Source of the DNA: Bacteroidota bacterium
GTDB taxonomy: Bacteria; Bacteroidota; Bacteroidia; Palsa-965
Assembly: GCA_013298545.1 (NCBI GenBank)
Contig: JAAFIA010000004.1
Span: 26,832-90,831 of the forward strand
Direction: 5' to 3'
Length of the DNA stretch: 64,000 bases
Below are positions 4,999-58,529 of this stretch, in pieces (position 1 is the stretch's first letter; every line of letters begins with the position of its first letter). Below the pieces are notes generated by a model. That model was given only the letters and a program-made list of their open reading frames with translations, ran no database searches and was not told the DNA's origin. Both the position numbers and the translations under genes were made by a program.

Positions 4999-5541
4999 TT
5001 ACCGGTTATAGCTTTTCACCACAATTTGCGCAAAATCGAAGAGGGAATTGACGTACATATCGGCTTCAGGAAGCGAGGGGGCATCGCCAACAAAAACCGC
5101 TTGCATACCCGCATTGCGGGCAAAGCCCATATCGCTGTGCGAATCGCCAACCATGATGGCGTTTGCAAAATCAATTTCAGGAAAATCTTTTTTGGCAAGC
5201 AAGGCCATTCCAATTCCGGGTTTTCGCAAGGGCGAATTTTCAGAAGCGGCATTGGGCGAAAAGTAAACGGCATTAATTTTTCCGCCACGCTTTTTAATTT
5301 CAGCGCACATGTACGCATGAATTTTTTCGAGATCGGATGCGTTGTACAAGCCTTTCGAAATGCCTTGTTGGTTGGTAACAACAACAATGCGTTGAATATG
5401 TTTCGACAACATATTCAACGCATCTAAAACTCCGGGAAGAAATTTAAACTCTTCAAGCCGCTTAACGTAATCATTCATGAGCCGGACATTGATAACTCCG
5501 TCGCGGTCGAGAAATAGTGTAGTGGCTGAGTTGAGGTGCAT
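4999..5541 (-). CDS. gmhB: D-glycero-D-manno-heptose-1,7-bisphosphate phosphatase (HAD-IIIA family)
   Basis: FLDRDGVIN motif, VVVTNQ(Q)GI and GDSxSD motifs typical of GmhB/histidinol-phosphatase-like HAD-IIIA proteins. Start lies 2 bp after the upstream gene's stop, suggesting an operon with the BNR surface protein. Confidence 0.8.
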   Translation of the reverse strand: MHLNSATTLFLDRDGVINVRLMNDYVKRLEEFKFLPGVLDALNMLSKHIQRIVVVTNQQGISKGLYNASDLEKIHAYMCAEIKKRGGKINAVYFSPNAASENSPLRKPGIGMALLAKKDFPEIDFANAIMVGDSHSDMGFARNAGMQAVFVGDAPSLPEADMYVNSLFDFAQIVVKSYNR

Positions 5542-5542
5542 A

Positions 5543-8500
5543 TTAGTAGATTAAAACGCGACGAACCGTTTCCTGTTTGGAATTGGTTAAGCGAATCAAA
5601 AATGTTCCTGATCCGAAAGGAGTGAGGTCAAGTTGTTGGTTGTAGCGTCCGTTAAATTGTGTGAGTGTTTCGGCATAAATTTCACGACCGAGTGCGTCGC
5701 AAATACTTAACACATAATCGTCATTGGTTTGTACTTCGAACGCAAGTTGGAATTGGCCGTTGCTTGGATTTGGTGCAATGACAAAAAATCCGGCGGCTTC
5801 GTTTGGTGGAACGCCATTGACGAGCGTGGCTTGCGATTCGCCACCCGTACATCCAGAAGAGGTAAATGTAGCAACGCTGTACATCCCAACGTTTAATGCA
5901 GTATAGTTTTGCGATGTTGCTCCGGCAATGGGTGTGCCGTTGAAATACCATTGGTATTGCGGTGCGGCGGGCGAACAGGTGAGCATAAATCCATTAACCA
6001 AAACGGTTGGCATTTGCATCGGTGGTAACACAATCAACATGCGGGCACTAGACGCGGTACATCCATTGGTATCGGTTCCCGTTACCGAATAGGTTGTTGT
6101 TCCGTAAGGCCAAACGAGCGCAGAGTCATTGGCTGCGGTGTTGGTGTAGATGGATGGATTCCAGGTGTATTGCAAATTTTGATTGCTACAAGTAACCCAT
6201 GTTGTGTCGCCAAAACAAATAGAGGTAGCACTAGTAACCGAAAATCCCGGTAGGGGATTTACACGAATTTCAACAGAATCGGAGGAAGAACATCCGAATA
6301 CATCGGTTGTGGTTAAGACAAATATTTGTGTTCCGGCTTGTTGTGCAATAAGTGTTGGATTTTGAATGGTGGCATGGTCTAACCCTGTTGTTGGCGACCA
6401 AGAATAAGTTGCTGCACCAGTGCCGCTAAGTGTTATAAAACCGCTGTTGCATAAACTGGTATCTGCTCCAGCATTTACATTGGGTGCAGCAGCAACGGTG
6501 ATGGTTTGCGCAAGCGTATCGTTGCCGTTTGCATTCGAGACAATGAGCGTAACGGTGTACGTTCCAGCAGCGGTATAATTTACAACCGGATTTTGCGAAG
6601 TTGATGTATTCGGTGTTGCGCCAGGAAAATCCCAAGCCCATGCTGTTGCAGCAGGAGCAGATAGATCCGTAAACGACGCGTTACCATTTTGACAAACAGT
6701 TGCAGGTGCCGCAAATGCTGCGGTTGGCGGCAATGATGTTGATCCGCTGATGTTGATGTTATCGAGATAAATGAATTGGCCGTGATGTCCGCGATTTCTA
6801 AAAACAACCATCACGCTTGTTTGTCCGGCATAAGCATTGAGGTTGATGGTTTCGGTACGCCATTGGTTGTTGGTTGGCGTAAAGAGCGATGTTTGATCGG
6901 GTGTGGTAGCAAGTTGTGTTCCGCCTTTCAAAAACACGGAAGTAAATGTTGCGCCGCAATCGGAAGAGATCAATACTTCGATGGAGTCGCTGCGTGTAGC
7001 ATTGTAACGCGCATAAGCCACATCGAAATCGAGTTGAAGTGTTGTGTATCCCGTAAAATTAATTCCGGGAGAACGCAATTCGTCGCGGTCGTTGTTGACA
7101 ATGTTGTTGAAGTTGTTGAAATAAGCACACTCATTGCTGTTGTGCCCAACCGTGCTGCTGCGTTCCCAAACAAAATTCTGATTTCCGGCGTTGAGCATAC
7201 TCCATCCTGCTGGGACAAATGTTGTGGAAACAAAGCCTTCAACAACAGGAGGTGTCAACGCACCCGTAACCGTGATGTAGGTAAGTTTCGATTCAACAGC
7301 AGCACCAGCGATATTGGTCGCTGTAAGTGTTACAGGATAAACGCCGGGCGTGTTGTAAACAACAGTAGGATTTTGGAGCGATGATGTGCTTGGTGTTCCG
7401 CCAGGAAAATTCCAAGACCATGCCGTTGGAGCGAGTGTAGAAAGATCGGTAAACTGTACGGTTTGTCCGGGGCAAACCAACGTGTTATTTGCCGCGAAAT
7501 TGGCATCGGCAGTTAACAGCGAAAGATCAATCGGTGCTTCCCACACGCCACGCCCATAAGTCGATGCGCGCAAGGTCATGGTTGGCAGAAAAATTTTCAA
7601 ATCAGAAACGGGTGTATTCGGAAGACCTGTAAAAAAGGGTTGCCAAGAAGACATATTATCGTCGCGGTAATAAACACCCACATCGCATCCAACATACACG
7701 GCGTTATTTCCTGCACCTGGAATCGCTGCAACACAATTTGCAGGAAGGTTTGGCAATCCGTTGGAAATGTTGGTCCAAGAAATACCAGCATCGTGCGTTA
7801 CAAAAACATGGTAGTTGTTGTTATATCCAGACAGCGTAACCCAAAGCGTTTTCTCATCTTGCGGACTCACACCGATGCGCGAAATAGAAGAACCCGATGT
7901 TGAAATCGTACCTGTGATTGTTGTCCATGTAGCACCACCATTGCTCGATCTAAAAATCGCAGAACTGGAACAGGCGTAAATGTATTGTGTGTTTGACGGA
8001 GCAACTTCAATATCGACGAGTGTTGCGCCGTTTTGCAGTGTACCTAATTGTGTCCACGAGTTGCCTTGATTGGTTGATTTAAAAACCTGAGTATAGCCTG
8101 CATAAAGCGTATTGGCCACGAGTGGATCTTGACACCAAGGCGTAACCCAACCCGCATTGCCAGACAGGCCACTGGTAATTCCGGTCCAGTTATTTCCGCC
8201 ATTTGTAGAACGGTTGAAATCGCCATAATACAATTCGCCGTACATCACATTGTTGTTTGTGCGGTCGATGAAACAATCCATGCCATCGCCACCTAAAACT
8301 TCGGCGTACGAATTTCCACTTTTGAGATTTGTTCCGTTGTCTTGATGCCCCGTGATGAGTATGGTTGAGTTGCTTGCAGAAAGCCCCAAGCGATAGATTT
8401 GTGCAATACACATGTTGCTACTGATGTCAGCCCACGAATTTCCGTTGTTGGTTGTTTCAAATACACCACCATCGCAGGCCACAAAAATGGAAGAACCATT

Positions 8501-10003: not shown

Positions 10004-13000
10004 TTAGTACGTGATGGTACGTGTAATGATTTCGTTTGTTTCACTCTTCAAACGGATGGTGTAAACACCACGCTCTTTTGTTGATAGATCAATTTGTTTG
10101 CTGTATGTTCCAGAGAAGCTCGTCAGATCTTCGCGGTAAACAACTTGACCCAGCACGTCATAAATTTCGAGCACGTAGTTTTCTTTCTTATCCACATTGA
10201 ATCGCAATTCAAAACGACCGTCGTTTGGATTTGGATATAACGAGAAGAAGTTTGCCGCAGATGTACCTTCGATTCCAGTAATCATGATTGGTTGCGATTC
10301 AACAGAAGGACAGCCAATAGCATCATACACAACAACAGTATAGTTGCCTGTTTGTGTTGCGGTATAAGTTTGTGCAGTTGCGCCTGGGATCGGATTTCCA
10401 TTGAGGAACCACTGATAACTTGCTCCTGTTACAGACGATGTCAGTACGTTGCCAACATTGGTAATGGTTGGTGTTGCAGGTGTTGAACCAACAGTTACGG
10501 TTACAACAACCGTTGCCGTACAACCATTGATGTCTGTTCCTGTTACGGTGTACGATGTTGTTGTTGCTGGAGAAACGGTTACAGAAACGCCGCTAAGGTT
10601 GCCCGGATTCCACGTGTAAGTATCAGCGCCTTGCGCGGTAAGTGTTGTGGCATCGCCAGGGCAAATTTGTTGATTGCCGGTAGCGGTTACAGTAGGCGCG
10701 TCGTTTACGTTAATGGCAACTGTGCCAACGTTTGTACAGCCATTTGCATCTGTTCCTACAACGGTGTAAGTAGTATTTGACACAGGAGAAACAGTTACTG
10801 GAGATCCGCTGAGGTTGCCAGGGTTCCAAGTGTAGGTATTTGCTCCTGATCCGCTAAGAACGGTGCTGTTTCCAGTACAGAGTGTGGTATTCGATGCAGA
10901 CGCAGCAACAGTCGGTAAGCTATTGACGGTTACAGCAACGGTCGATGTATTTGTACAACCGTTTGCATCTGTTCCTGTTACGGTGTAAGTGGTTGTCGCA
11001 GTTGGTGCATCGGTTACAGAAGCACCGCTCAAATTACCCGGCATCCAGTTGTATGAAGATGCGCCACTAGCGGTCAACGAAACAGAAGATCCTTGGCAAA
11101 TTGCGGCATTGCCAGATGTTGCCGTAACGGTTGGCGGCGTATTGACCGTGATCGAAACAGTAGAGGTGTTTGTACAACCTGCAGCCGATGTTCCAGTTAC
11201 AGTATAGGTTGTGTTTGCTGTTGGAGCAACACTAACCGAAGAACCAGAGAGGTTGCCCGGATTCCAAGTGTATGTTGATGCGCCACTGGCATTCAGCGTT
11301 GTGTTTCCACCAGAACAAATTGTACTGCTTGTTGCGGTCGAAGAAATGGTTGGCAATTGATTGACCGTTACCAGAACAGTTGCTGTATTTACGCAGCCCG
11401 GGCCGTTTGAACCTGTTACGGTGTATGTCGTTGTCGTTGCTGGCGAAACGGTAACAGAAGCGCCACTCAAGTTGCCCGGCATCCAGTTGTACGTTGTCGC
11501 GCCATTGCCTGTCAGTGTTGCAGAATTGCCAATACAAATTGCCGCATTAGAAGTTGCTGCAGTTACTGTTGGCAAACTTCCTACTGTAATTGTAATGGTT
11601 TGAACGTTTGTGCAACCACTCGTAGTTCCTGTTACGGTGTACGTTGTTGTTACGGCAGGAGTAACGGTAATCGATGCACCACTCAAGTTGCCTGGTTGCC
11701 AGTTGTATGTGGTTGCGCCTGATGCCGACAAGGTAACAGGATTGCCTGTGCAGATACTTGTGCTCGAAGCGGTAGTCGTAACAGTTGGAGAAGGGTTAAC
11801 CGTAATGGTTTGGTTAAACGTGTCTGTGCAACCATTGGCTGCTGTTCCGGTTACGGTGTACGTTGTTGTTGTTGTTGGCGACACCGTTACAGAAGTACCA
11901 CTCAAATTGCCCGGTTGCCAAGTATAGGTGCTTCCACCAGCAGCCGTAATGGTTGTGCTGTTTCCAGAACAAATCGTTGCGAGTGCAGTTGACGCGGTTA
12001 CGTTTGGCGTTGTGTTAACCGTAATGGTTCGTGTTGTTGTTCCTGTACAGCCAGCAGAGGTACCTGTGATGGTATAGGTTGTTGTTACAGCAGGAGATAC
12101 AGTTACCGACGCACCACTCAAATTGCCCGGCATCCAATTGTAGGTTGTTGCTCCAGAAGCCGTGATGGTGGTGCTATTTCCAGAACAGATGGTGGTGTTT
12201 GTAGCTGTTGTGGTTACTGTTGGCGAAGGATTGACAGTAATAGTTTGATTCACCGTGTTTGTACAACCATTCGCCGCAGTTCCTACGATGGTGTAGGTTG
12301 TTGTTGTTGTTGGCGACACCGTGTTTGAAGCACCACTTAAATTACCCGGTTGCCAGTTGTACGTGCTTGCACCAGAGGCTGTGATGGTTGTACTGTTTCC
12401 AGAACAAATTGTAGCGAGCGCAGTTGATGCTGTTACGGTTGGTGAGGTATTAACCGTAATGGTTCGTGTTGTTGTTCCTGTACAGCCACCTGTAGTTCCG
12501 GTGATGGTATAAGTTGTCGTTGTTGCAGGAGATACTGTTACTGAAGCACCACTCAAATTACCCGGCATCCAATTGTAGGTTGTTGCTCCAGAGGCAGTAA
12601 TGGTTGTACTATTGCCAGAACAAATCGTCGTATTTGTCGCCGTAGTTGTAACGGTTGGACTTGGCGTAACGGTTATCTGAACGGTTGAAGTCGCAGAACA
12701 ACCTGCCGATGTTCCCGTTAAGGTATAAGTTGTCGTTGTTACAGGAGATACCGTTACTGAAGCGCCACTCAAATTGCCCGGCATCCAGTTATACGTTGAT
12801 GCACCAGTAGCCGTGAGTGTTGTACTGTTTCCAGTACAAATGGCTGTATTTGATGCCGTAGCGGTTACCGTTGGTGTTGGATTTACAGTAATGGTACGCG
12901 TTGATGTTCCCGTACAACCAGCCGATGTTCCCGTAATGGTGTATGTTGTTGTTGTTGTTGGCGACACCGTATTTGAAGCACCAGTCAAACTACCGGGCAT

Positions 13001-16000
13001 CCAGTTGTAGGTTGTAGCACCAGAAGCGGTAATGGTTGTGTTGTTGCCCGAACAAATGGTTGTACTGGTTGCCGTAGTTGTAACGGTTGGAGTAGCGTTT
13101 ACAGTAATAACCTGTGTGGCACTACTGTTGCCATTTCCATTGGTAGCGGTGAGTGAAACAGTATATGTTCCGGGTGTGTTCCAAACAATACCAGAAGGAT
13201 TTTGTGCTGTTGACGATGCCGGAGTTCCACTCGGGAATGTCCAAGCCCAACTTGTTGGGCCGCCTGTTGAAGCATCGGTAAAATTGACGGTTGCGCCTGT
13301 ACATACTGTTGTTGCGCTTGCGGTAAATGCAGCAACTGGGCCAGCAGCAGCGTTTCCGGCAAGGTTTACGTTATCAACATAAAGCGCTTGTCCGTAGCGT
13401 CCGCGGTTGCGGAATGCGACGAGCACAGAACCTTGACCAACATAGGCATTTAGGTTAACTGATTCGTTGCGCCATTGTGCGTTTGTTGGAACAAAAATGG
13501 TTGCTGTTTGATCGGGAGCGGTTGCAAGTGTTGTGCCTCCTTTCAAATAAACCGAAGTCCATGTTGCTCCACAATTGGTAGAAACAACGACTTCAAGTGT
13601 ATCGGAATAGGTAGCGTCGTAGCGCGCATAAGCGACATCAAATGTTAACGAGCAGGTAGTGAGTGCAGAAAAATTAAGGCGAGGCATAATCATCTCGTCT
13701 CGTGCACCTGCTACGTCCATTGTATAGTTATCAAATCGAGCACTTGCGGTTGAGTTGTAACCAACTGTTTGACGGTTCCAATAAATACCATCGTTATTGA
13801 TGTTGTTTGCCGTCCAGCCCGCAGGGAGGAATGTTGTTGATTCAAATCCTTCCGATATAGGCGGATTTTGAACACCAAGAACTGTAATGACTTGCGTAGT
13901 AGCATTGCTGCCGTTTGCGTTTGTTGCAGTAAGCGTTACCGTATATGTTCCGGGTGTATTCCAAACAATACCGCTTGGATTTTGTGCCGTTGATGTTGAT
14001 GGAGTTCCACTTGGGAAAGTCCAAGCCCAAGAGGTTGGAACAAAAGAGGATTGGTCGGTAAAGTTTACGCCCACTCCCGTGCATGTTGTAAATGTGCTTG
14101 GAGTAAATTGCGCCACCGGAGGCAATGTTCCGGGATTGTAAATATCAACTTCCCAAACACCACGTCCATACGTTGCCGCGCGAAGCTTGCCTGTTGGGGC
14201 ATAAACTTCAAGATCTTCGATACCGCAATTCGGAATACCAGTGAGGTAAGGCTGCCAAGAAGCGAATGTATTATCGATGTAATACACGCCAACATCCATA
14301 CCTACATAAGCCGCATCATTTGTTGCACCTGGCATATAAGTAATACAGTTTGCAGGAAGATTTGGAAGGCCCGTAGAAAGGTTTGTCCATGCTCCGCCAC
14401 CATTGGTAGTTTTATATACTTTATTTCCAGAAGAATAGCCAGAGAATGTTACCAAAACGGTGTTTGGATCATTTGGTTTAATAGCCAATCGAGTAATGGC
14501 CGCCGAACCAACAGGAAGTGTACCCGTTACGTTTGTCCAAGCACCACCACCATTGGTTGATTTCCAGACTTGGTTAGAGCGGCACACATAAATCACCTGA
14601 TTGTTTGATGGGGCAACTTGAATATCGACAATTGTTCCTGATCCAGTTAATGTGCCTTGTTGCGTCCAATTCGTTCCTTGGTTGGTTGACTTAAAGACTT
14701 GTGTATAACCCGCCCAAAGTGTATTGGCTGTTGTCGGATCTTGTACCCAAGGCGTAACCCATGCTGCATTTCCTGTAAGGCCAGTAATAATTCCTGTCCA
14801 TGTAGCACCGCCATTGGTTGTTCGGTTAAAGTTACCATTGTATTGCTCGCCATACATGACATTGTTGTTTGTGCGATCAACAAAGCAAGTCATACCATCG
14901 CCGCCCATCGTTTCGGAATAACCCGCACCGTTGCGCAGGTTCGTTCCATTGTCTTGGTGGCCAGTGAGCCAGTATGTAGGATTAGAGGCAGATAAACCAA
15001 TACGATAGATTTGAGCGATGCAAAGATTTGCTGAAATATCGGCCCAAGCACCGCCGCTGTTGGTTGTTTTAAACACACCACCGTCGCAACCTGCAAAATA
15101 AGTTGTACCACTTCCGGGCAAGAACACGAGATCGTGAACGTCTGCATGCACATAAGGTGCGCCGGTGCCAGTCCAGTGTCCATTGATTGTCCATGTTGTA
15201 CCGCCGTTTGTGGAGCGCCAAATATTGACACCACCTACAATAATTTGGTCTTGGTTGAGTGGAGAAGCGGCAATGGCTAAATCATACCAACTTTGTCCAC
15301 CAGTATCGCTACCTGTGCTTGACCAACCCAGCACGTTTGGTGTTGTAGAGCGTGAAGCAAATGTTGTTCCGCTATCGGTAGAGCGATAAAGGCCATAAAA
15401 ACCACTATTGGCATTGCTTCCAGCTAAAATATACACATAAGCAGGATTTGCTGCGGTAACAGCAATTGCTAAACGGTTGTTTTGTGCGCTTGTTGGAAGG
15501 CCAGAGGTAATGTTTGTCCATGTTGCACCGCTGTTTGTTGATTTATAGAACAATGTTCCAGCAGCATAAATGGTTGTCGGATCGCCAGGTTTAAATTCTG
15601 CATCTTTAATGTTGGCCGTACTTACTTGAGCCCAATTTACACCAGCATCAGTCGAACGCCAGATACCCGCACTGGAGAAGGCCATGATGATTTGTGGATT
15701 GGATGGGTTGATGAGCAATTTGCTAATCACGCGGCCTTGGTTTACTGTCCAAGTCAAGCCTGATGTATTCCATGTAGTACCACCATCAGTCGATTTTAAA
15801 ACGCCAATCGAGTAAGAGTCGCCCGCATCGCCATCGCCAGTAGCCAAATACATGATTTGTGTATTGGTTGGATCAATAGCCACATCGGTACAGCCGATGA
15901 CGGTCAGAAAATCGGTATTGGTTGTCCAACTAACACCTCCGTTAATTGATTTCCAGAGGCCGCCATCGGGAGCGCCAGCCCACATGGTAGTGCTGTTGGT

Positions 16001-19687: not shown

Positions 19688-20263
19688 TTATTTCACCGGA
19701 ACGGTCAACGAGTCTTGATCTTTCACTTTTACTTTTAAATCAATATTTAAATCTTCTTTTCCCGGAATCATTTTACCCAATTGTGTTTCGCGTAGGCCGG
19801 GCAATACCATCGGAGCAAAAGCGGCCACAGGTCGATACAAAAGCGATTCGTCTTTCATCTTTGGCGGAATGATGGACATTTTTTCCTCTGCGGCATCGAG
19901 GACAAAAAATAACACACTAATGACGAGTAAAAATTTTCCCGCCCCCAAAGCCCCGCCCACTATTTTATTTACCATACTCAACGCCGCATTTTCAACCACA
20001 CGCTCCACTAACTTGGCAACCGCATAAACACCAATCAAAATTCCAACAAACACCAGCGCGAACGAAATCAATGGAATGTATGGAGACTCCGAATCCATCC
20101 ACCCGCGCAGAATCCCCGCCATCCAATCAGAAAGGTGTGTTCCGCCCCACAAGCCCAGAAAAAAAGCCACCAACAAAGCCGCTTCCATAATAGCACCCTT
20201 CATAAACCCGCGCCAAAATCCCCAAAGGATTGGAATCGCGACAAGCAAATCGATTGCATTCAT
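19688..20263 (-). CDS. cvpA: CvpA family membrane protein (colicin V production protein-like)
   Basis: MNAIDLLVAIPILWGFWRGFMKG... with 4 TM helices, the typical CvpA N-terminus. Confidence 0.8.
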   Translation of the reverse strand: MNAIDLLVAIPILWGFWRGFMKGAIMEAALLVAFFLGLWGGTHLSDWMAGILRGWMDSESPYIPLISFALVFVGILIGVYAVAKLVERVVENAALSMVNKIVGGALGAGKFLLVISVLFFVLDAAEEKMSIIPPKMKDESLLYRPVAAFAPMVLPGLRETQLGKMIPGKEDLNIDLKVKVKDQDSLTVPVK

Positions 20264-20455
20264 GGTACAAAGTTCGTTTTTGTTGCAAGCCTTTCACGTT
20301 AACAAGCTGTTGTTTTTCCATGCTATTTTGTGAATAGCGAGAACAGGTTTCAAGTTCCAGATTCCAAGTTCCAAAGGTTGCGCTTTTGGACACAGTTCGG
20401 TTTTAAAGTTCCAAGTTCCAAACGTATGTGTAATATAAATCGAATCAATTGCCCC

Positions 20456-20636
20456 CTGGAACTTGGAGCTTGAGATTTGGAACTTGGAATCTGGAACTTG
20501 GAACTTGGAAACTGGAAACTGGAACTTGGAACTTGGAAACTGGAAACTGGAACTTGGAAACTGGAACTTGGAAACTGGAACTTGGAAACTGGAAACTGGA
20601 ACTTGGAAACTTGAAACTTGGAACTTGGAAACTTGA
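20456..20636. repeat. heptanucleotide microsatellite (GGAACTT / GGAAACT)n, ~25 units
   Basis: Uninterrupted run ggaacttggaacttggaaactggaaactgg... in the intergenic region between divergent cvpA (start 20263) and the 20655 CDS. A perfect 25-bp inverted copy (20351-20375, caagttccagattccaagttccaaa) matches 20476-20500. Confidence 0.9.
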
Positions 20637-20654
20637 ACCTTACCTTTGCCACTT

Positions 20655-20999
20655 ATGGAAGCAGAAGTACGTGAAGAACGTTGGAATACCATTCTCAAAC
20701 GCCTCGAACCACAATTTGGCGGCGACCTCGATATTCAGGCGGTGCTTTTTATTATTGGTTTACAAGAATTGGGGCATGGCTATAAGGCCTACAAAAAAGA
20801 TCAAAAGCTCGATATTATGCACGTTGCGGTTTGTTCGTTGCTTGAACCGTATGGCTATTACACCTTTGAAGGCCGCGATGCCGAAAATTGGCCACATTGG
20901 TTGCCAACGTCAAAACTCCCACACTTGAAGCCAGCACAGCAACACCGACTCATGCAAGAAGCCGTGATTGATTATTTTGAACGAGAAGAATTGATATAA
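20655..20999 (+). CDS. hypothetical protein (114 aa)
   Basis: ATG at 20655 (MEAEVREERW...). Good coding composition. A strong terminator follows immediately. No known domain recognised. Confidence 0.55.
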   Translation: MEAEVREERWNTILKRLEPQFGGDLDIQAVLFIIGLQELGHGYKAYKKDQKLDIMHVAVCSLLEPYGYYTFEGRDAENWPHWLPTSKLPHLKPAQQHRLMQEAVIDYFEREELI

Positions 21000-21000
21000 A

Positions 21001-21030
21001 AAAAGCCGCGTCAGCAATGACGCGGCTTCT
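21001..21030. terminator. bidirectional intrinsic terminator
   Basis: aaaaa-gccgcgtca-gcaa-tgacgcggc-ttct, a 9-bp GC-rich stem, between the convergent genes ending at 20999 and 21046. Confidence 0.8.
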
Positions 21031-21045
21031 ATGCAAAAATATTTT

Positions 21046-21384
21046 TTATTGATTAACAGTTACTTCGTCTGTTTTTCCTTCTTCAAAACGAACAACAGAG
21101 CCAGAATTATTGCCATTGATAAAAATATCCATGATTTTTGGCAAATCGGTGGTGAAACTCGCTTTACCAGAAGCATCAGTCCGTTCTACCATATCCTCGA
21201 TATCGCCAGTGCCGGGCTTTAGACGAACTTCCGCACCAGGAATAGGATTCCCCGTCGATTGAGAAAGGACAGTTACGATCGCTTTACATTCTTTATTCTT
21301 ATTGCAGGCGGTTGTATAAACAGCAACAGCCAACAAGAGCAGCAAGCTGCTCAACATAGCGAGTTTGATAGGTGTCTTTTTCAT
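21046..21384 (-). CDS. small lipoprotein with carboxypeptidase-regulatory-like beta-sandwich fold
   Basis: Signal peptide plus lipobox (LLLLAVAVYTTAC). ...VRLKPGTGDIEDMVERTDASGKASF resembles CarboxypepD_reg-like domains. Confidence 0.6.
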   Translation of the reverse strand: MKKTPIKLAMLSSLLLLLAVAVYTTACNKNKECKAIVTVLSQSTGNPIPGAEVRLKPGTGDIEDMVERTDASGKASFTTDLPKIMDIFINGNNSGSVVRFEEGKTDEVTVNQ

Positions 21385-23819: not shown

Positions 23820-24783
23820 ATGACAAATTTTTCTAAGCAGCCAATATCTATTCCTGATCAAATAGCGCTTTTAAAATCAAGAGGGCTAATTATTCCTGAT
23901 GTAGCTCGTGCAGAACGTTATTTATCAAACATTAGCTATTACAGATTTAGTGGATATGCGAAATTTTTTCAAGTACAAAATGATCCCAACCACAACTTCA
24001 TTGTAGGGACAAGTTTTGATGATGTTTTAGCGTATTATTTATTTGATAGAAAATTGAGATTGCTTGTTTTTGATGCAATTGAACGTGTTGAAGTTAGTTT
24101 CAGGACAGCATTGGTCAATAACCTCTGTGTCGATCATGGTTGAACGTGTTGAAGTTAGTTTCAGGACAGCATTGGTCAATAACCTCTGTGTCGATCATGG
24201 TACAAATTGGTATGAGGAACAAAACCTATTTACAGATCCATTGCAATACAGCAAAAATCTAATCAAGCTGGTTTCAGAAATAGATCGCTCTGGAGAATAT
24301 TTCATTAAGCATTACAAAACATTCTACCAATCGCCGCAGAGACCTCCTGCATGGATGAGCTTAGAAATAGCTTCATTGGGCTTGCTATCTACAACATACC
24401 GAAACTTGAAAATGAGTCCTGCGAAAAAGAGGATAGCATTACAATTTGGAATAAAAGCTCCTTATGTTTTTGAAAGTTGGATGGAAAGTCTGACTTATGT
24501 TAGAAATGTATGTGCGCATCATGCCAGATTGTGGAATCGGAACCTGACTATTAAACCTCAATTACCCAAAACTACAACAAGCACTTTTTTAGTTAATACG
24601 TCAGCACCCAACACATCGCTATATACATGCTTATCCTGTCTTCTATATTTAAGAAAAAACAGTAATCCGAAAACAGAGTTAGCTAAACGTATTCGCCAAC
24701 TTTTTATAGAATACCCGAATGTTGATATACAAAAAATGGGCTTCTTGTCGGGATGGGAAAAAGAACCAATTTGGGCAACATAA
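23820..24783 (+). pseudogene. Abi_2-family (AbiD/AbiF-like) abortive-infection gene, disrupted by a 61-bp tandem duplication
   Basis: N-terminus MTNFSKQPISIPDQIALLKSRGLIIPD..ERYLSNISYYRFSGYAKFF is the classic Abi_2 (PF07751) start. The reading frame breaks at 24141, where the 61-bp segment tgaacgtgttgaag...gtcgatcatggt (24080-24140) is exactly repeated (24141-24201). The amino-acid stretch ERVEVSFRTALVNNLCVDHG therefore occurs in both halves. Removing one copy restores a single ~300-aa ORF. Confidence 0.75.
24080..24201 (+). repeat. perfect 61-bp direct tandem duplication inside the Abi_2 gene
   Basis: The two copies are identical base for base. 61 is not a multiple of 3, so the duplication causes a frameshift. 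Confidence 0.9.
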
Positions 24784-28345: not shown

Positions 28346-28417
28346 AGTTGCAGGAAGGATTCGAACCTTCGGTTTCTGTTTTGCAGACAGATGCCTTAAC
28401 CACTTGGCGACAGCAAC
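28346..28417 (-). tRNA. tRNA-Cys (anticodon GCA)
   Basis: Reverse-complement gttgctg tc gcc aagtggttaa ggc a tctgt ctGCAaa acaga aacc gaagg ttcgaat ccttc ctgcaac t folds as a cloverleaf. Features: U8, A14, GG18-19, U33, A37, T-loop TTCGAAT, discriminator U73 (typical of tRNA-Cys), one U-U mismatch in the acceptor stem. CCA is not encoded. Confidence 0.8.
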
Positions 28418-58285: not shown

Positions 58286-58529
58286 TTTAATGTAGCAAGG
58301 TAATATTTTCAGCGCACGGGCCATCTCGCAATGGGCAAATTGTTGAATTGGTGAATGAAAATTCACGCAAGATTTCGCACCGATAAAGAATGGGTGAATT
58401 ATTGAACTTTAATGTAGCAAGGCAGTATTTTCAGCGCACGGGCCATCTCGCAATGGGCAAATTGTTGAATTGGCGAATGAAAATTTACGCAAGCGTTCGC
58501 ACCGATAAAGAATGGGTGAAGTATTGTAC
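58286..58529. repeat. two-copy direct tandem repeat, 122-bp unit (~93% identity), intergenic
   Basis: tttaatgtagcaagg..gcgcacgggccatctcgcaatgggcaaattgttgaattggtgaatgaaaattcacgcaag..gcaccgataaagaatgggtgaa.. occurs at 58286-58407 and 58408-58529. It contains the ttgaattggtgaat core of the E family. Confidence 0.85.

Follow-up and report, generated by a model that had tools for sequence, protein, structure and literature searches.

The spacer between cvpA and a divergent gene for a conserved 114-aa Bacteroidota protein contains a large complex of 7-bp repeats with inverted partners. The complex belongs to the already described heptanucleotide class of long SSRs, of which it is an ordinary though elaborate example. 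The reading that we prefer, with a probability of about 0.6, is a heptameric SSR quasi-palindrome that slippage, together with template switching from arm to arm, has generated and remodeled. It would occupy a tolerant slot upstream of start-codon-proximal, probably leaderless promoters, with one repeat unit serving as a -33 element. The features that characterize the long-SSR class were all found at this locus, namely head-to-tail 7-mers beyond chance, an intergenic position, turnover of length and composition at a kept site, and inverted pairing. A regulatory role of the array is putative. All positions are those of the window, which is the whole 64-kb stretch of DNA analyzed, unless a locus of another genome is named, and the features are collected in Table 1.

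Table 1. Features of the cvpA/114-aa-gene spacer and its surroundings
Feature	Position	Strand	Remarks
cvpA (colicin V production family membrane protein)	19688-20263	-	Pfam PF02674, E = 2.4e-23
Non-repetitive block adjoining cvpA	20264-20343		Holds the cvpA -7-like box and motif TTGTGAATAGC
Inverted arm 1	20344-20375	-	Four opposite-orientation heptamer units, AAGTTCC type on the plus strand
Loop copy L(+)	20376-20406	+	Weakly similar, in the same orientation, to the loop of the relative's 62-bp module; runs into the beginning of arm 2 as called
Inverted arm 2	20400-20421	-	Core AAGTTCCAAGTTCCA at 20407-20421; inverted pairs I21-I25
Loop copy L(-)	20422-20456	-	Matches the relative's loop as reverse complement only
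Main heptamer array	20457-20640	+	About 25 units TGGAACT / TGGAAAC; nested 14-, 22-, and 28-bp duplications
-7 box TACCTTTG of the 114-aa gene	20641-20648	+	Directly after the last repeat unit, 6 nt before ATG
Conserved 114-aa Bacteroidota protein, right-hand gene	20655-20999	+	Without family match
GC-rich hairpin	21001-21030	Scored as minus-strand terminator	13-pair stem, then T run (terminator scan)

Anatomy of the repeat complex

The complex is laid out as arm, loop, arm, loop, and long array and lies entirely within the intergenic spacer. In the 64-kb window, TRF called a period-7 array at 20457-20635 with 25.3 copies, 78% matches, and a score of 179, and the same array was also called with period 14 (11.4 copies, score 199). 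A parse of the main array gave 26 units, comprising 11 TGGAACT, 8 TGGAAAC, and 2 TGGAAACT, with the rest being single variants; the GGAACTT unit has a GC content of 42%. The 11-mer GGAACTTGGAA, allowing at most one mismatch, matched 15 times in 64 kb, and all matches were within 20348-20630. Shuffled sequence gave a mean of 1.46 matches, and none of 100 shuffles reached 15. These values agree with an earlier note on this DNA, which had described, in the promoter region of two divergent genes, about 25 tandem 7-mers together with inverted copies. The same note had the repeat filling nearly the whole spacer, which overstates its extent: the main array covers 47% of the 391-bp spacer (20264-20654), and the whole complex (20344-20640) covers 76%.

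The array is impure, and its longest perfect period-7 tract is only 19 nt. Beyond this tract, perfect repetition was found only at periods 14, 22, and 28. The period-14 tract measures 54 nt (20541-20594, 14 bp × 3.5), the period-22 tract 41 nt (20597-20637, within a 22-bp × 2 duplication at 20597-20640), and the period-28 tract 69 nt (20491-20559, with a 28-bp × 2 duplication at 20492-20547). Replication slippage or unequal exchange would have duplicated blocks of 7, 14, 22, and 28 bp. The copy number is that of one assembly, because the Logan contigs (short-read data) of SRR9948924 do not span the complex: coming from cvpA they end at 20381, and coming from the 114-aa gene they end within the array, at about 20579.

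The arms are inverted copies of array sequence. The 32-nt stretches 20344-20375 and 20476-20507 are 94% complementary, and they include the perfect inverted 25-mer (20351-20375 and 20476-20500) that had been pointed out before and is plain in the sequence. The odd array unit TGGAATC is also copied in arm 1. A second inverted copy exists, as had been claimed, but its coordinates of 20417-20433 were off by about 15 nt, the correct ones being 20400-20421; TRF called this arm at 20406-20421 (2.3 copies, 100%). The single strand of 20330-20660 folds at -47.1 kcal/mol, with a z score of -5.75 against shuffles. In this folding model the complex can form a long hairpin or cruciform, which upholds the stem or cruciform potential proposed earlier.

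Several other identities were considered for the repeat and set aside. A MITE or REP-type dispersed palindromic element was rejected on the basis of a single locus in the 64 kb of the window and about 21 kb of a close relative, a small part of the genome: no second GGAACTTGGAA locus occurred in the window and no further copy in the 21 kb of the relative. CRISPR was set aside by sequence inspection, as the units run head to tail without spacers. A coding repeat is also disfavored, since several reading frames of the array hold mutually overlapping ORFs and the stop codon TGA at 20634-20636, in frame with the 114-aa gene, precludes N-terminal extension of that gene into the array. An Rfam search at gathering thresholds found nothing at the repeat locus, and its sole match in the window was a tRNA at 28346-28417.

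The divergent pair of cvpA and the 114-aa gene is widely conserved among distant relatives (proteins 50 to 73% identical). The structural model of the 114-aa protein is confident (pLDDT 92). It gave no significant fold match in PDB, and MarR-like matches were insignificant, so that binding of the repeat by this protein is unsupported. The hairpin downstream of the gene (Table 1) lies between the convergent 114-aa gene and a Big_1-like gene (21046-21384, minus strand) and presumably terminates the plus-strand 114-aa gene as well.

Predicted promoters around and within the complex

A sigma-70 promoter scan gave no useful information and was dropped as directed at the wrong promoter type for Bacteroidota, and a scan for TAnnTTTG, the sigma-A -7 box of Bacteroidota, was used instead. 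In flavobacteria, this box spans -12 to -5 (PMC9723704). An exact TAnnTTTG was found at most 40 nt from the start codon in 40 of 78 orthologues of the 114-aa gene, while the control inside the coding sequence gave 1 of 78. In 21 of the 78 orthologues the box stands exactly 4 nt before the start codon, and in 6 it stands 6 nt before. A conserved -7 box at 4 to 6 nt from the start codon suggests that the mRNA of the 114-aa gene is probably leaderless or nearly so, with the array upstream of the core promoter. In the window, the predicted transcription start is at about 20653. From these motifs we infer that the array is promoter-upstream DNA and neither 5'-UTR nor coding sequence.

The -33 TTG of the 114-aa gene (20618-20620) belongs to an array unit, CTTG (20617-20620), and is 20 nt upstream of the -7 box. 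Because the array supplies the -33 TTG and the -7 box at 20641-20648 is outside the array, gain or loss of units cannot change the -33/-7 spacing. The earlier proposal of phase variation through promoter spacing is not supported by this motif-inferred arrangement, as units gained or lost farther upstream would leave the core promoter as it is. Phase variation of the classical kind would also draw on a long perfect tract of one unit, and here the array has 78% matches and a longest period-7 tract of 19 nt. The impurity of the tract and the repeat-free spacers of about 30 to 60 bp in many relatives both speak against a classical contingency locus.

On the other side of the spacer, a cvpA -7-like box, GAACTTTG, is located at 20275-20268 on the minus strand, 4 nt before the cvpA ATG. 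The non-repetitive block around it (20264-20343) is 89.6% identical in the close relative (locus L211). The motif TTGTGAATAGC (20328-20338) in this block recurs about 66 to 80 nt upstream of cvpA in five loci of other genomes (L123, L127, L128, L133, and L140), whatever sequence comes beyond the motif, and in L127/L128 it is 17 nt upstream of the -7 box of the 114-aa gene. The motif may be the ancestral -33 element of the 114-aa gene, which the complex would have shifted away by about 300 bp; a site for a regulator is the other possibility.

Two sigma-A-like boxes were also found inside the complex. The minus strand carries an exact sigma-A-like promoter directed toward cvpA, with TTG at 20448-20446, a 19-nt spacer, and TACGTTTG at 20426-20419. 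This candidate, TTG-N19-TACGTTTG, is built from the loop 20422-20456 plus the first bases of arm 2. The plus strand has a sigma-A-like box with one mismatch, GAGATTTG, at 20472-20479, with TTG 20 nt upstream. Both are putative promoters that could transcribe the arms.

The preferred reading would fit these motifs as follows. The complex would fill a slot between two divergent promoters, each right beside its start codon, and both mRNAs would be leaderless. A promoter-proximal array unit would now provide the -33 TTG of the 114-aa gene, a change in copy number would leave the core promoter intact, and any effect of the repeat on expression would be at most modulatory.

Comparison with a close relative

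The relative was represented by about 21 kb, in which L210 and L211 are loci of one JGI contig. Their flanks are 87.5 to 89.6% identical to the window (about 88%), and the promoter TACCTTTGCCACTTATG of the 114-aa gene is identical in L210. In the relative, a repeat complex occupies the corresponding position but is heavily remodeled. Its array in L210 consists of about 390 bp of mixed heptamers (TTGGAAC, TTGTTAT, TTGAGAT, TTGGAAT, and others), and an alignment of the two arrays reached only about 70%. The relative also has a 62-bp arm-plus-loop module repeated 4.3 times and, between a truncated module beside cvpA and this 62-bp array, an extra 6 kb of genes inside the complex. A comparison with close relatives had been recommended in the earlier note, and the outcome was instability: between flanks of about 88% identity, the array differs in size and composition.

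The loops and arms were compared in the same way. The loop 20422-20456 aligned to the loop of the relative as reverse complement with a score of 25 (shuffle p of about 0.0005), and its same-strand score was 9. The loop 20376-20406 aligned to it in the same orientation with a local score of 14, which is weak (shuffle p of about 0.05). One loop copy is thus opposite in orientation in the relative, and the flanking arms have the same orientation. Each inverted arm matched the array of its own species better than that of the other species, with 30/33 versus 27/33 (window arm 1), 29/33 versus 24/33, and 30/32 versus 25/32. These matches indicate that the arms evolve in concert, each species' arm being nearest to its own array; exchange from one inverted arm to the other, through template switching or gene conversion, would keep them alike. 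As the relative keeps the site with a remodeled complex, an insertion, and a flipped loop, the comparison indicates that the locus predates the split of the two species, that it is highly unstable, and that rearrangements occur there. In the preferred reading, the complex would also act as a fragile site.

The additional genes of the relative (L210 1-4533 and L211 1-4540) amount to about 6 kb and comprise two genes for Por_Secre_tail proteins (T9SS cargo), one of 1422 aa and the other of 491 aa. The pair is bounded by copies of the 62-bp module and is absent from the window.

In L210, the homologue of the 114-aa protein (5001-5564) was called at 187 aa, because 73 residues of the stop-free heptamer array (LELEIWNLEL...) were translated. 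Heptamer arrays can therefore inflate N-termini in automatic annotation, and the array is better regarded as promoter-upstream DNA, though one gene caller translated it. N-terminally extended homologue calls, which were surveyed for further arrays, were uninformative except P0121.

A second difference between the two genomes concerns an Abi_2 (abortive-infection family) gene. In the window, a perfect 61-bp tandem duplication at 24079-24201 splits this gene into two frames (ORFs 23820-24143 and 24064-24783). The gene of the relative has one 61-bp copy and is intact, at about 323 to 332 aa. The duplication could be a revertible frameshift or an assembly artifact.

The same spacer in distant relatives

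Many orthologous spacers between cvpA and the 114-aa gene are only about 30 to 60 bp long, and those of L123/L124 and L127/L128 have 100 to 190 bp without repeats. The short or repeat-free spacers therefore indicate that neither gene needs the array. Four other spacers contain heptamer or octamer palindromes that are unrelated to the complex of the window. The spacer of L129 has an unrelated palindrome of (TGATTGG)n and (CCAATNA)n, and that of L159 has another of (GGTATAGA)n and (TATACCT)n; in both, the two arms directly adjoin the -7 boxes of the respective genes. The spacer of L161 has TACGAAA-type units, and that of L125/L126 has (TGGTGAT)3 and its complement on both sides of an S23-IVP gene.

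The S23-IVP gene of L125/L126 (3456-4018) belongs to the four-helix-bundle family PF05635. It is located between inverted heptamer arms, (TGGTGAT)×3 and ACCAATCAC, which are accompanied by GCCTAGGCGGAG and CTCCGCCTAAGC. With this layout, the gene gives the appearance of an insertion in the loop of a palindrome of repeats.

The idea that sequences flanking the 114-aa gene are a strong hotspot of heptamer arrays was also considered and abandoned. The raw density of arrays beside the gene appeared 30 to 40 times higher. With an intergenic-only control, arrays were found in 15 of 115 spacers flanking the gene and in 7 of 129 other spacers of the same loci, an excess of about 2.6-fold (p = 0.045). 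Because the excess shrank to this value, it argues only weakly for a hotspot.

Heptamer arrays across bacterial phyla

Four tandem GGAAMYT units were found in more than 120 loci from many bacterial phyla, and these loci also contain many other heptamer arrays. Among 265 arrays of at least 4 copies from many phyla, 60 (23%) have an inverted copy within 300 bp; the controls gave 8 direct copies and 1 reverse copy. Five loci (L051, L012, L019, L007, and L083) share the window layout of a short inverted arm, a loop, and a long array. The unit GGAACTT is not special in itself: in viral contigs, GGAAMYT×4 occurred at 13 loci, compared with 36 and 13 for permuted, composition-matched controls, so that permuted heptamers form arrays equally or more often. 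In the cross-phylum set, no clear strand bias relative to neighboring genes was seen (18 sense versus 14 antisense, by crude gene calls).

The view that the complex persists and is remodeled chiefly as a by-product of mutation, in a position that tolerates it, is supported by the nested perfect duplications, the copying of TGGAATC into arm 1, the short spacers of orthologues, the rapid turnover in L210/L211, the concerted arms, and the lack of unit specificity and strand bias. Other observations count against this reading. The complex has kept its site although the flanks have diverged by about 12%, the corresponding spacer of L129, L159, L161, and L125/L126 has unrelated palindromes of heptamers or octamers, arrays are 2.6-fold in excess beside the 114-aa gene, and the complementarity of the arms is maintained. 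Each of these could reflect selection for function.

Comparison with known repeat classes

The cyanobacterial STRR sequences (Calothrix/Nostoc) are intergenic tandem heptanucleotides, like the array described here. They form a genome-wide family of few fixed sequences, whereas one complex was seen here. The ctx heptads of Vibrio cholerae number about 3 to 8, and their regulators are ToxT and H-NS. According to the abstract of a preprint (bioRxiv 10.1101/2021.05.14.444153), the TTTTGAT heptads of ctxAB are also located upstream of the core promoter, and their number correlates with promoter activity. The same abstract has the heptads recruiting transcriptional regulators, whereas no binding protein is predictable for the array of the window.

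Among the long SSRs of prokaryotes, heptamer repeats are the most over-represented class, and slippage of the polymerase is the cause that has been put forward (Mrazek 2007, as cited in PMC4679880 and PMC4692102). The closest likeness is to the GGGAATC repeats of Xanthomonas and the GGGGAYT repeats of Nostoc (Rehm et al. 2015, PMC4692102), which have a 7-bp unit, are intergenic, comprise 2 to 26 units, and frequently form close inverted pairs, as here. Each Xanthomonas genome has about 185 GGGAATC arrays with 70 to 75 close inverted pairs, and the position and pair type of the arrays are kept between sister species while the length varies (PMC4692102); at the window locus the site is likewise kept and the length changed between related species. 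In contrast to those G-rich, quadruplex-capable units, GGAACTT with its 42% GC cannot form a quadruplex, and against about 185 arrays per Xanthomonas genome, only one complex was seen here, in the 64 kb of the window and some 21 kb of the relative. Heptamer repeats at rec genes of Nostoc provide a functional precedent.

The TAACTGA repeats of Beggiatoaceae, Cyanobacteria, and some Bacteroidetes (MacGregor 2015, PMC4679880) are also intergenic and form long arrays, reaching 43 copies in Bacteroidetes, and relatives have shorter spacers without the repeat, as in our case. S1, Csp, and Csr proteins were proposed in the same work as binders of heptamer repeats. TAACTGA sets are mostly forward and end a few nucleotides before start codons, with one inverted set only, whereas the window array stops at the -7 box and has inverted partners. 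The (ATCTTTC)n repeat of Haemophilus influenzae hmw1A/hmw2A (PMC12721329) is likewise a heptamer SSR upstream of a gene, with a complementary arm and a long hairpin, and its copy number changes over time. Transcription places the hmw repeat in the 5'-UTR, where RNase III processes it, whereas the conserved promoter in the window is downstream of the array, and because of this the main transcript should lack the array.

Alternative explanations

A copy-number rheostat or phase-variable switch, in which array length tunes the 114-aa gene, cvpA, or both, appears unlikely, although it is the alternative to which we give the most weight. At the DNA level, a change in length would alter the distance or helical phase of upstream sites relative to the core promoter, as for the ctxAB heptads; the conserved -7 box downstream of the array and the -33 element regenerated by it leave the promoter spacing unaffected. 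At the RNA level, a transcribed array would pair with its complementary arm, after the manner of hmw1A, whose 5'-UTR forms a hairpin that RNase III cuts. The one-mismatch box GAGATTTG could transcribe the whole array, but RNA from its candidate start at about 20484 would carry the main array only, without the left arms 20344-20421, and therefore a hairpin of the hmw kind would not arise. In favor of the switch, the tract changes between relatives and contains perfect sub-repeats of 14 and 28 bp, which are well suited to slippage; on the other hand, it is only 78% pure, many relatives lack any repeat, and cvpA and a conserved family-less protein are not among the usual phase-variable gene classes. 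Heptamer SSRs that control expression do have precedents, in hmw (PMC12721329) and in the heptads of ctxAB. Also improbable, somewhat more so, is a DNA structural or recombination element whose arms extrude a cruciform or hairpin, acting as a promoter insulator or as a scaffold for the entry and exit of gene cassettes. The stable predicted hairpin (-47 kcal/mol, z = -5.75), the preponderance of inverted pairs (60 of 265 arrays, versus 8 direct and 1 reverse in the controls), the arm-plus-loop modules that bound the 6 kb with two Por_Secre_tail genes of the relative, and the inverted heptamer arms on either side of the S23-IVP gene of L125/L126 are in its favor. Against it, the ancestral spacers of about 30 to 60 bp make an insulator unnecessary, cruciform extrusion is a prediction only, and rearrangement at repeats is expected from homology alone, without a selected function.

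Bacteroidota are rich in invertons, and the complex has the makings of one: a perfect 25-bp inverted repeat in the arms and, in the loop, an exact TTG-N19-TAnnTTTG, namely TTG-N19-TACGTTTG on the minus strand (20448-20419). The loop 20422-20456 is, moreover, opposite to the homologous loop of the relative, with the arms unflipped. Flipping of a promoter-bearing segment between the arms, which would drive cvpA or the 114-aa gene, is nevertheless very unlikely. Both genes already have conserved promoters adjacent to their start codons, and the internal promoter motif is partly made by the loop/arm junction and is inexact in the relative. No recombinase gene was found within about 5 kb in the window or in the relative, trans-acting enzymes still being possible, and the single difference in orientation, seen between species only, is explicable by one homologous inversion or a palindromic duplication. 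An even smaller chance, the lowest that we assign, goes to a transcribed RNA element, a repeat-rich sRNA or leader that would present (GGAACUU)n as binding sites for a protein, a role that has been proposed for the TAACTGA repeats. RNA from the two candidate internal promoters would carry GGAACUU-sense units toward each gene, and S1, Csp, and Csr are the proposed heptamer-repeat binders (MacGregor 2015, PMC4679880). The locus has no Rfam family match, however, and the conserved promoter is downstream of the array. Arrays lack strand bias with respect to downstream genes, unit sequences are wholly different among relatives at the same spacer, and control heptamers are equally common. It is a long shot, ranking between the structural element and the inverton, that heptamer-arm palindromes are a distinct self-maintaining class of elements, with concerted arms and flippable loops, which adjoin the promoters of leaderless genes, serve as promoter cassettes that can invert or as scaffolds for insertion, and are not passive products of slippage. 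If they were such a class, the 6-kb Por_Secre_tail pair of the relative and the S23-IVP gene of L125 would be candidate insertions. Compared with these alternatives, slippage and arm template switching in a tolerant slot between two promoters agrees best with the data, and a species pair with very different arrays at one site makes a workable test case for distinguishing a by-product from expression regulation and from rearrangement.

Additional repeats in the window and in other genomes

Short GGAAMYT arrays of the cross-phylum set were also located inside long ORFs, 56 in antisense and 23 in sense orientation by crude gene calls. A Saprospiraceae MAG (L060, 1-7968, minus strand) has a 2656-aa ORF that is cut at the edge of the locus and appears PKS/NRPS-like by eye. 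This ORF contains six different near-perfect heptamer arrays of 4.1 to 4.7 copies (about 29 to 33 nt), which are read in frame as short peptides, e.g., KSEIRNPKSEI, apparently between domains. Elsewhere in the window, TRF called a large tandem repeat at 11768-13109, within a long repetitive stretch, either as 435 bp × 3.1 or as 216 bp × 6.2 with 70 to 76% matches, and a 122-bp × 2 tandem repeat with 94% identity at 58286-58526.
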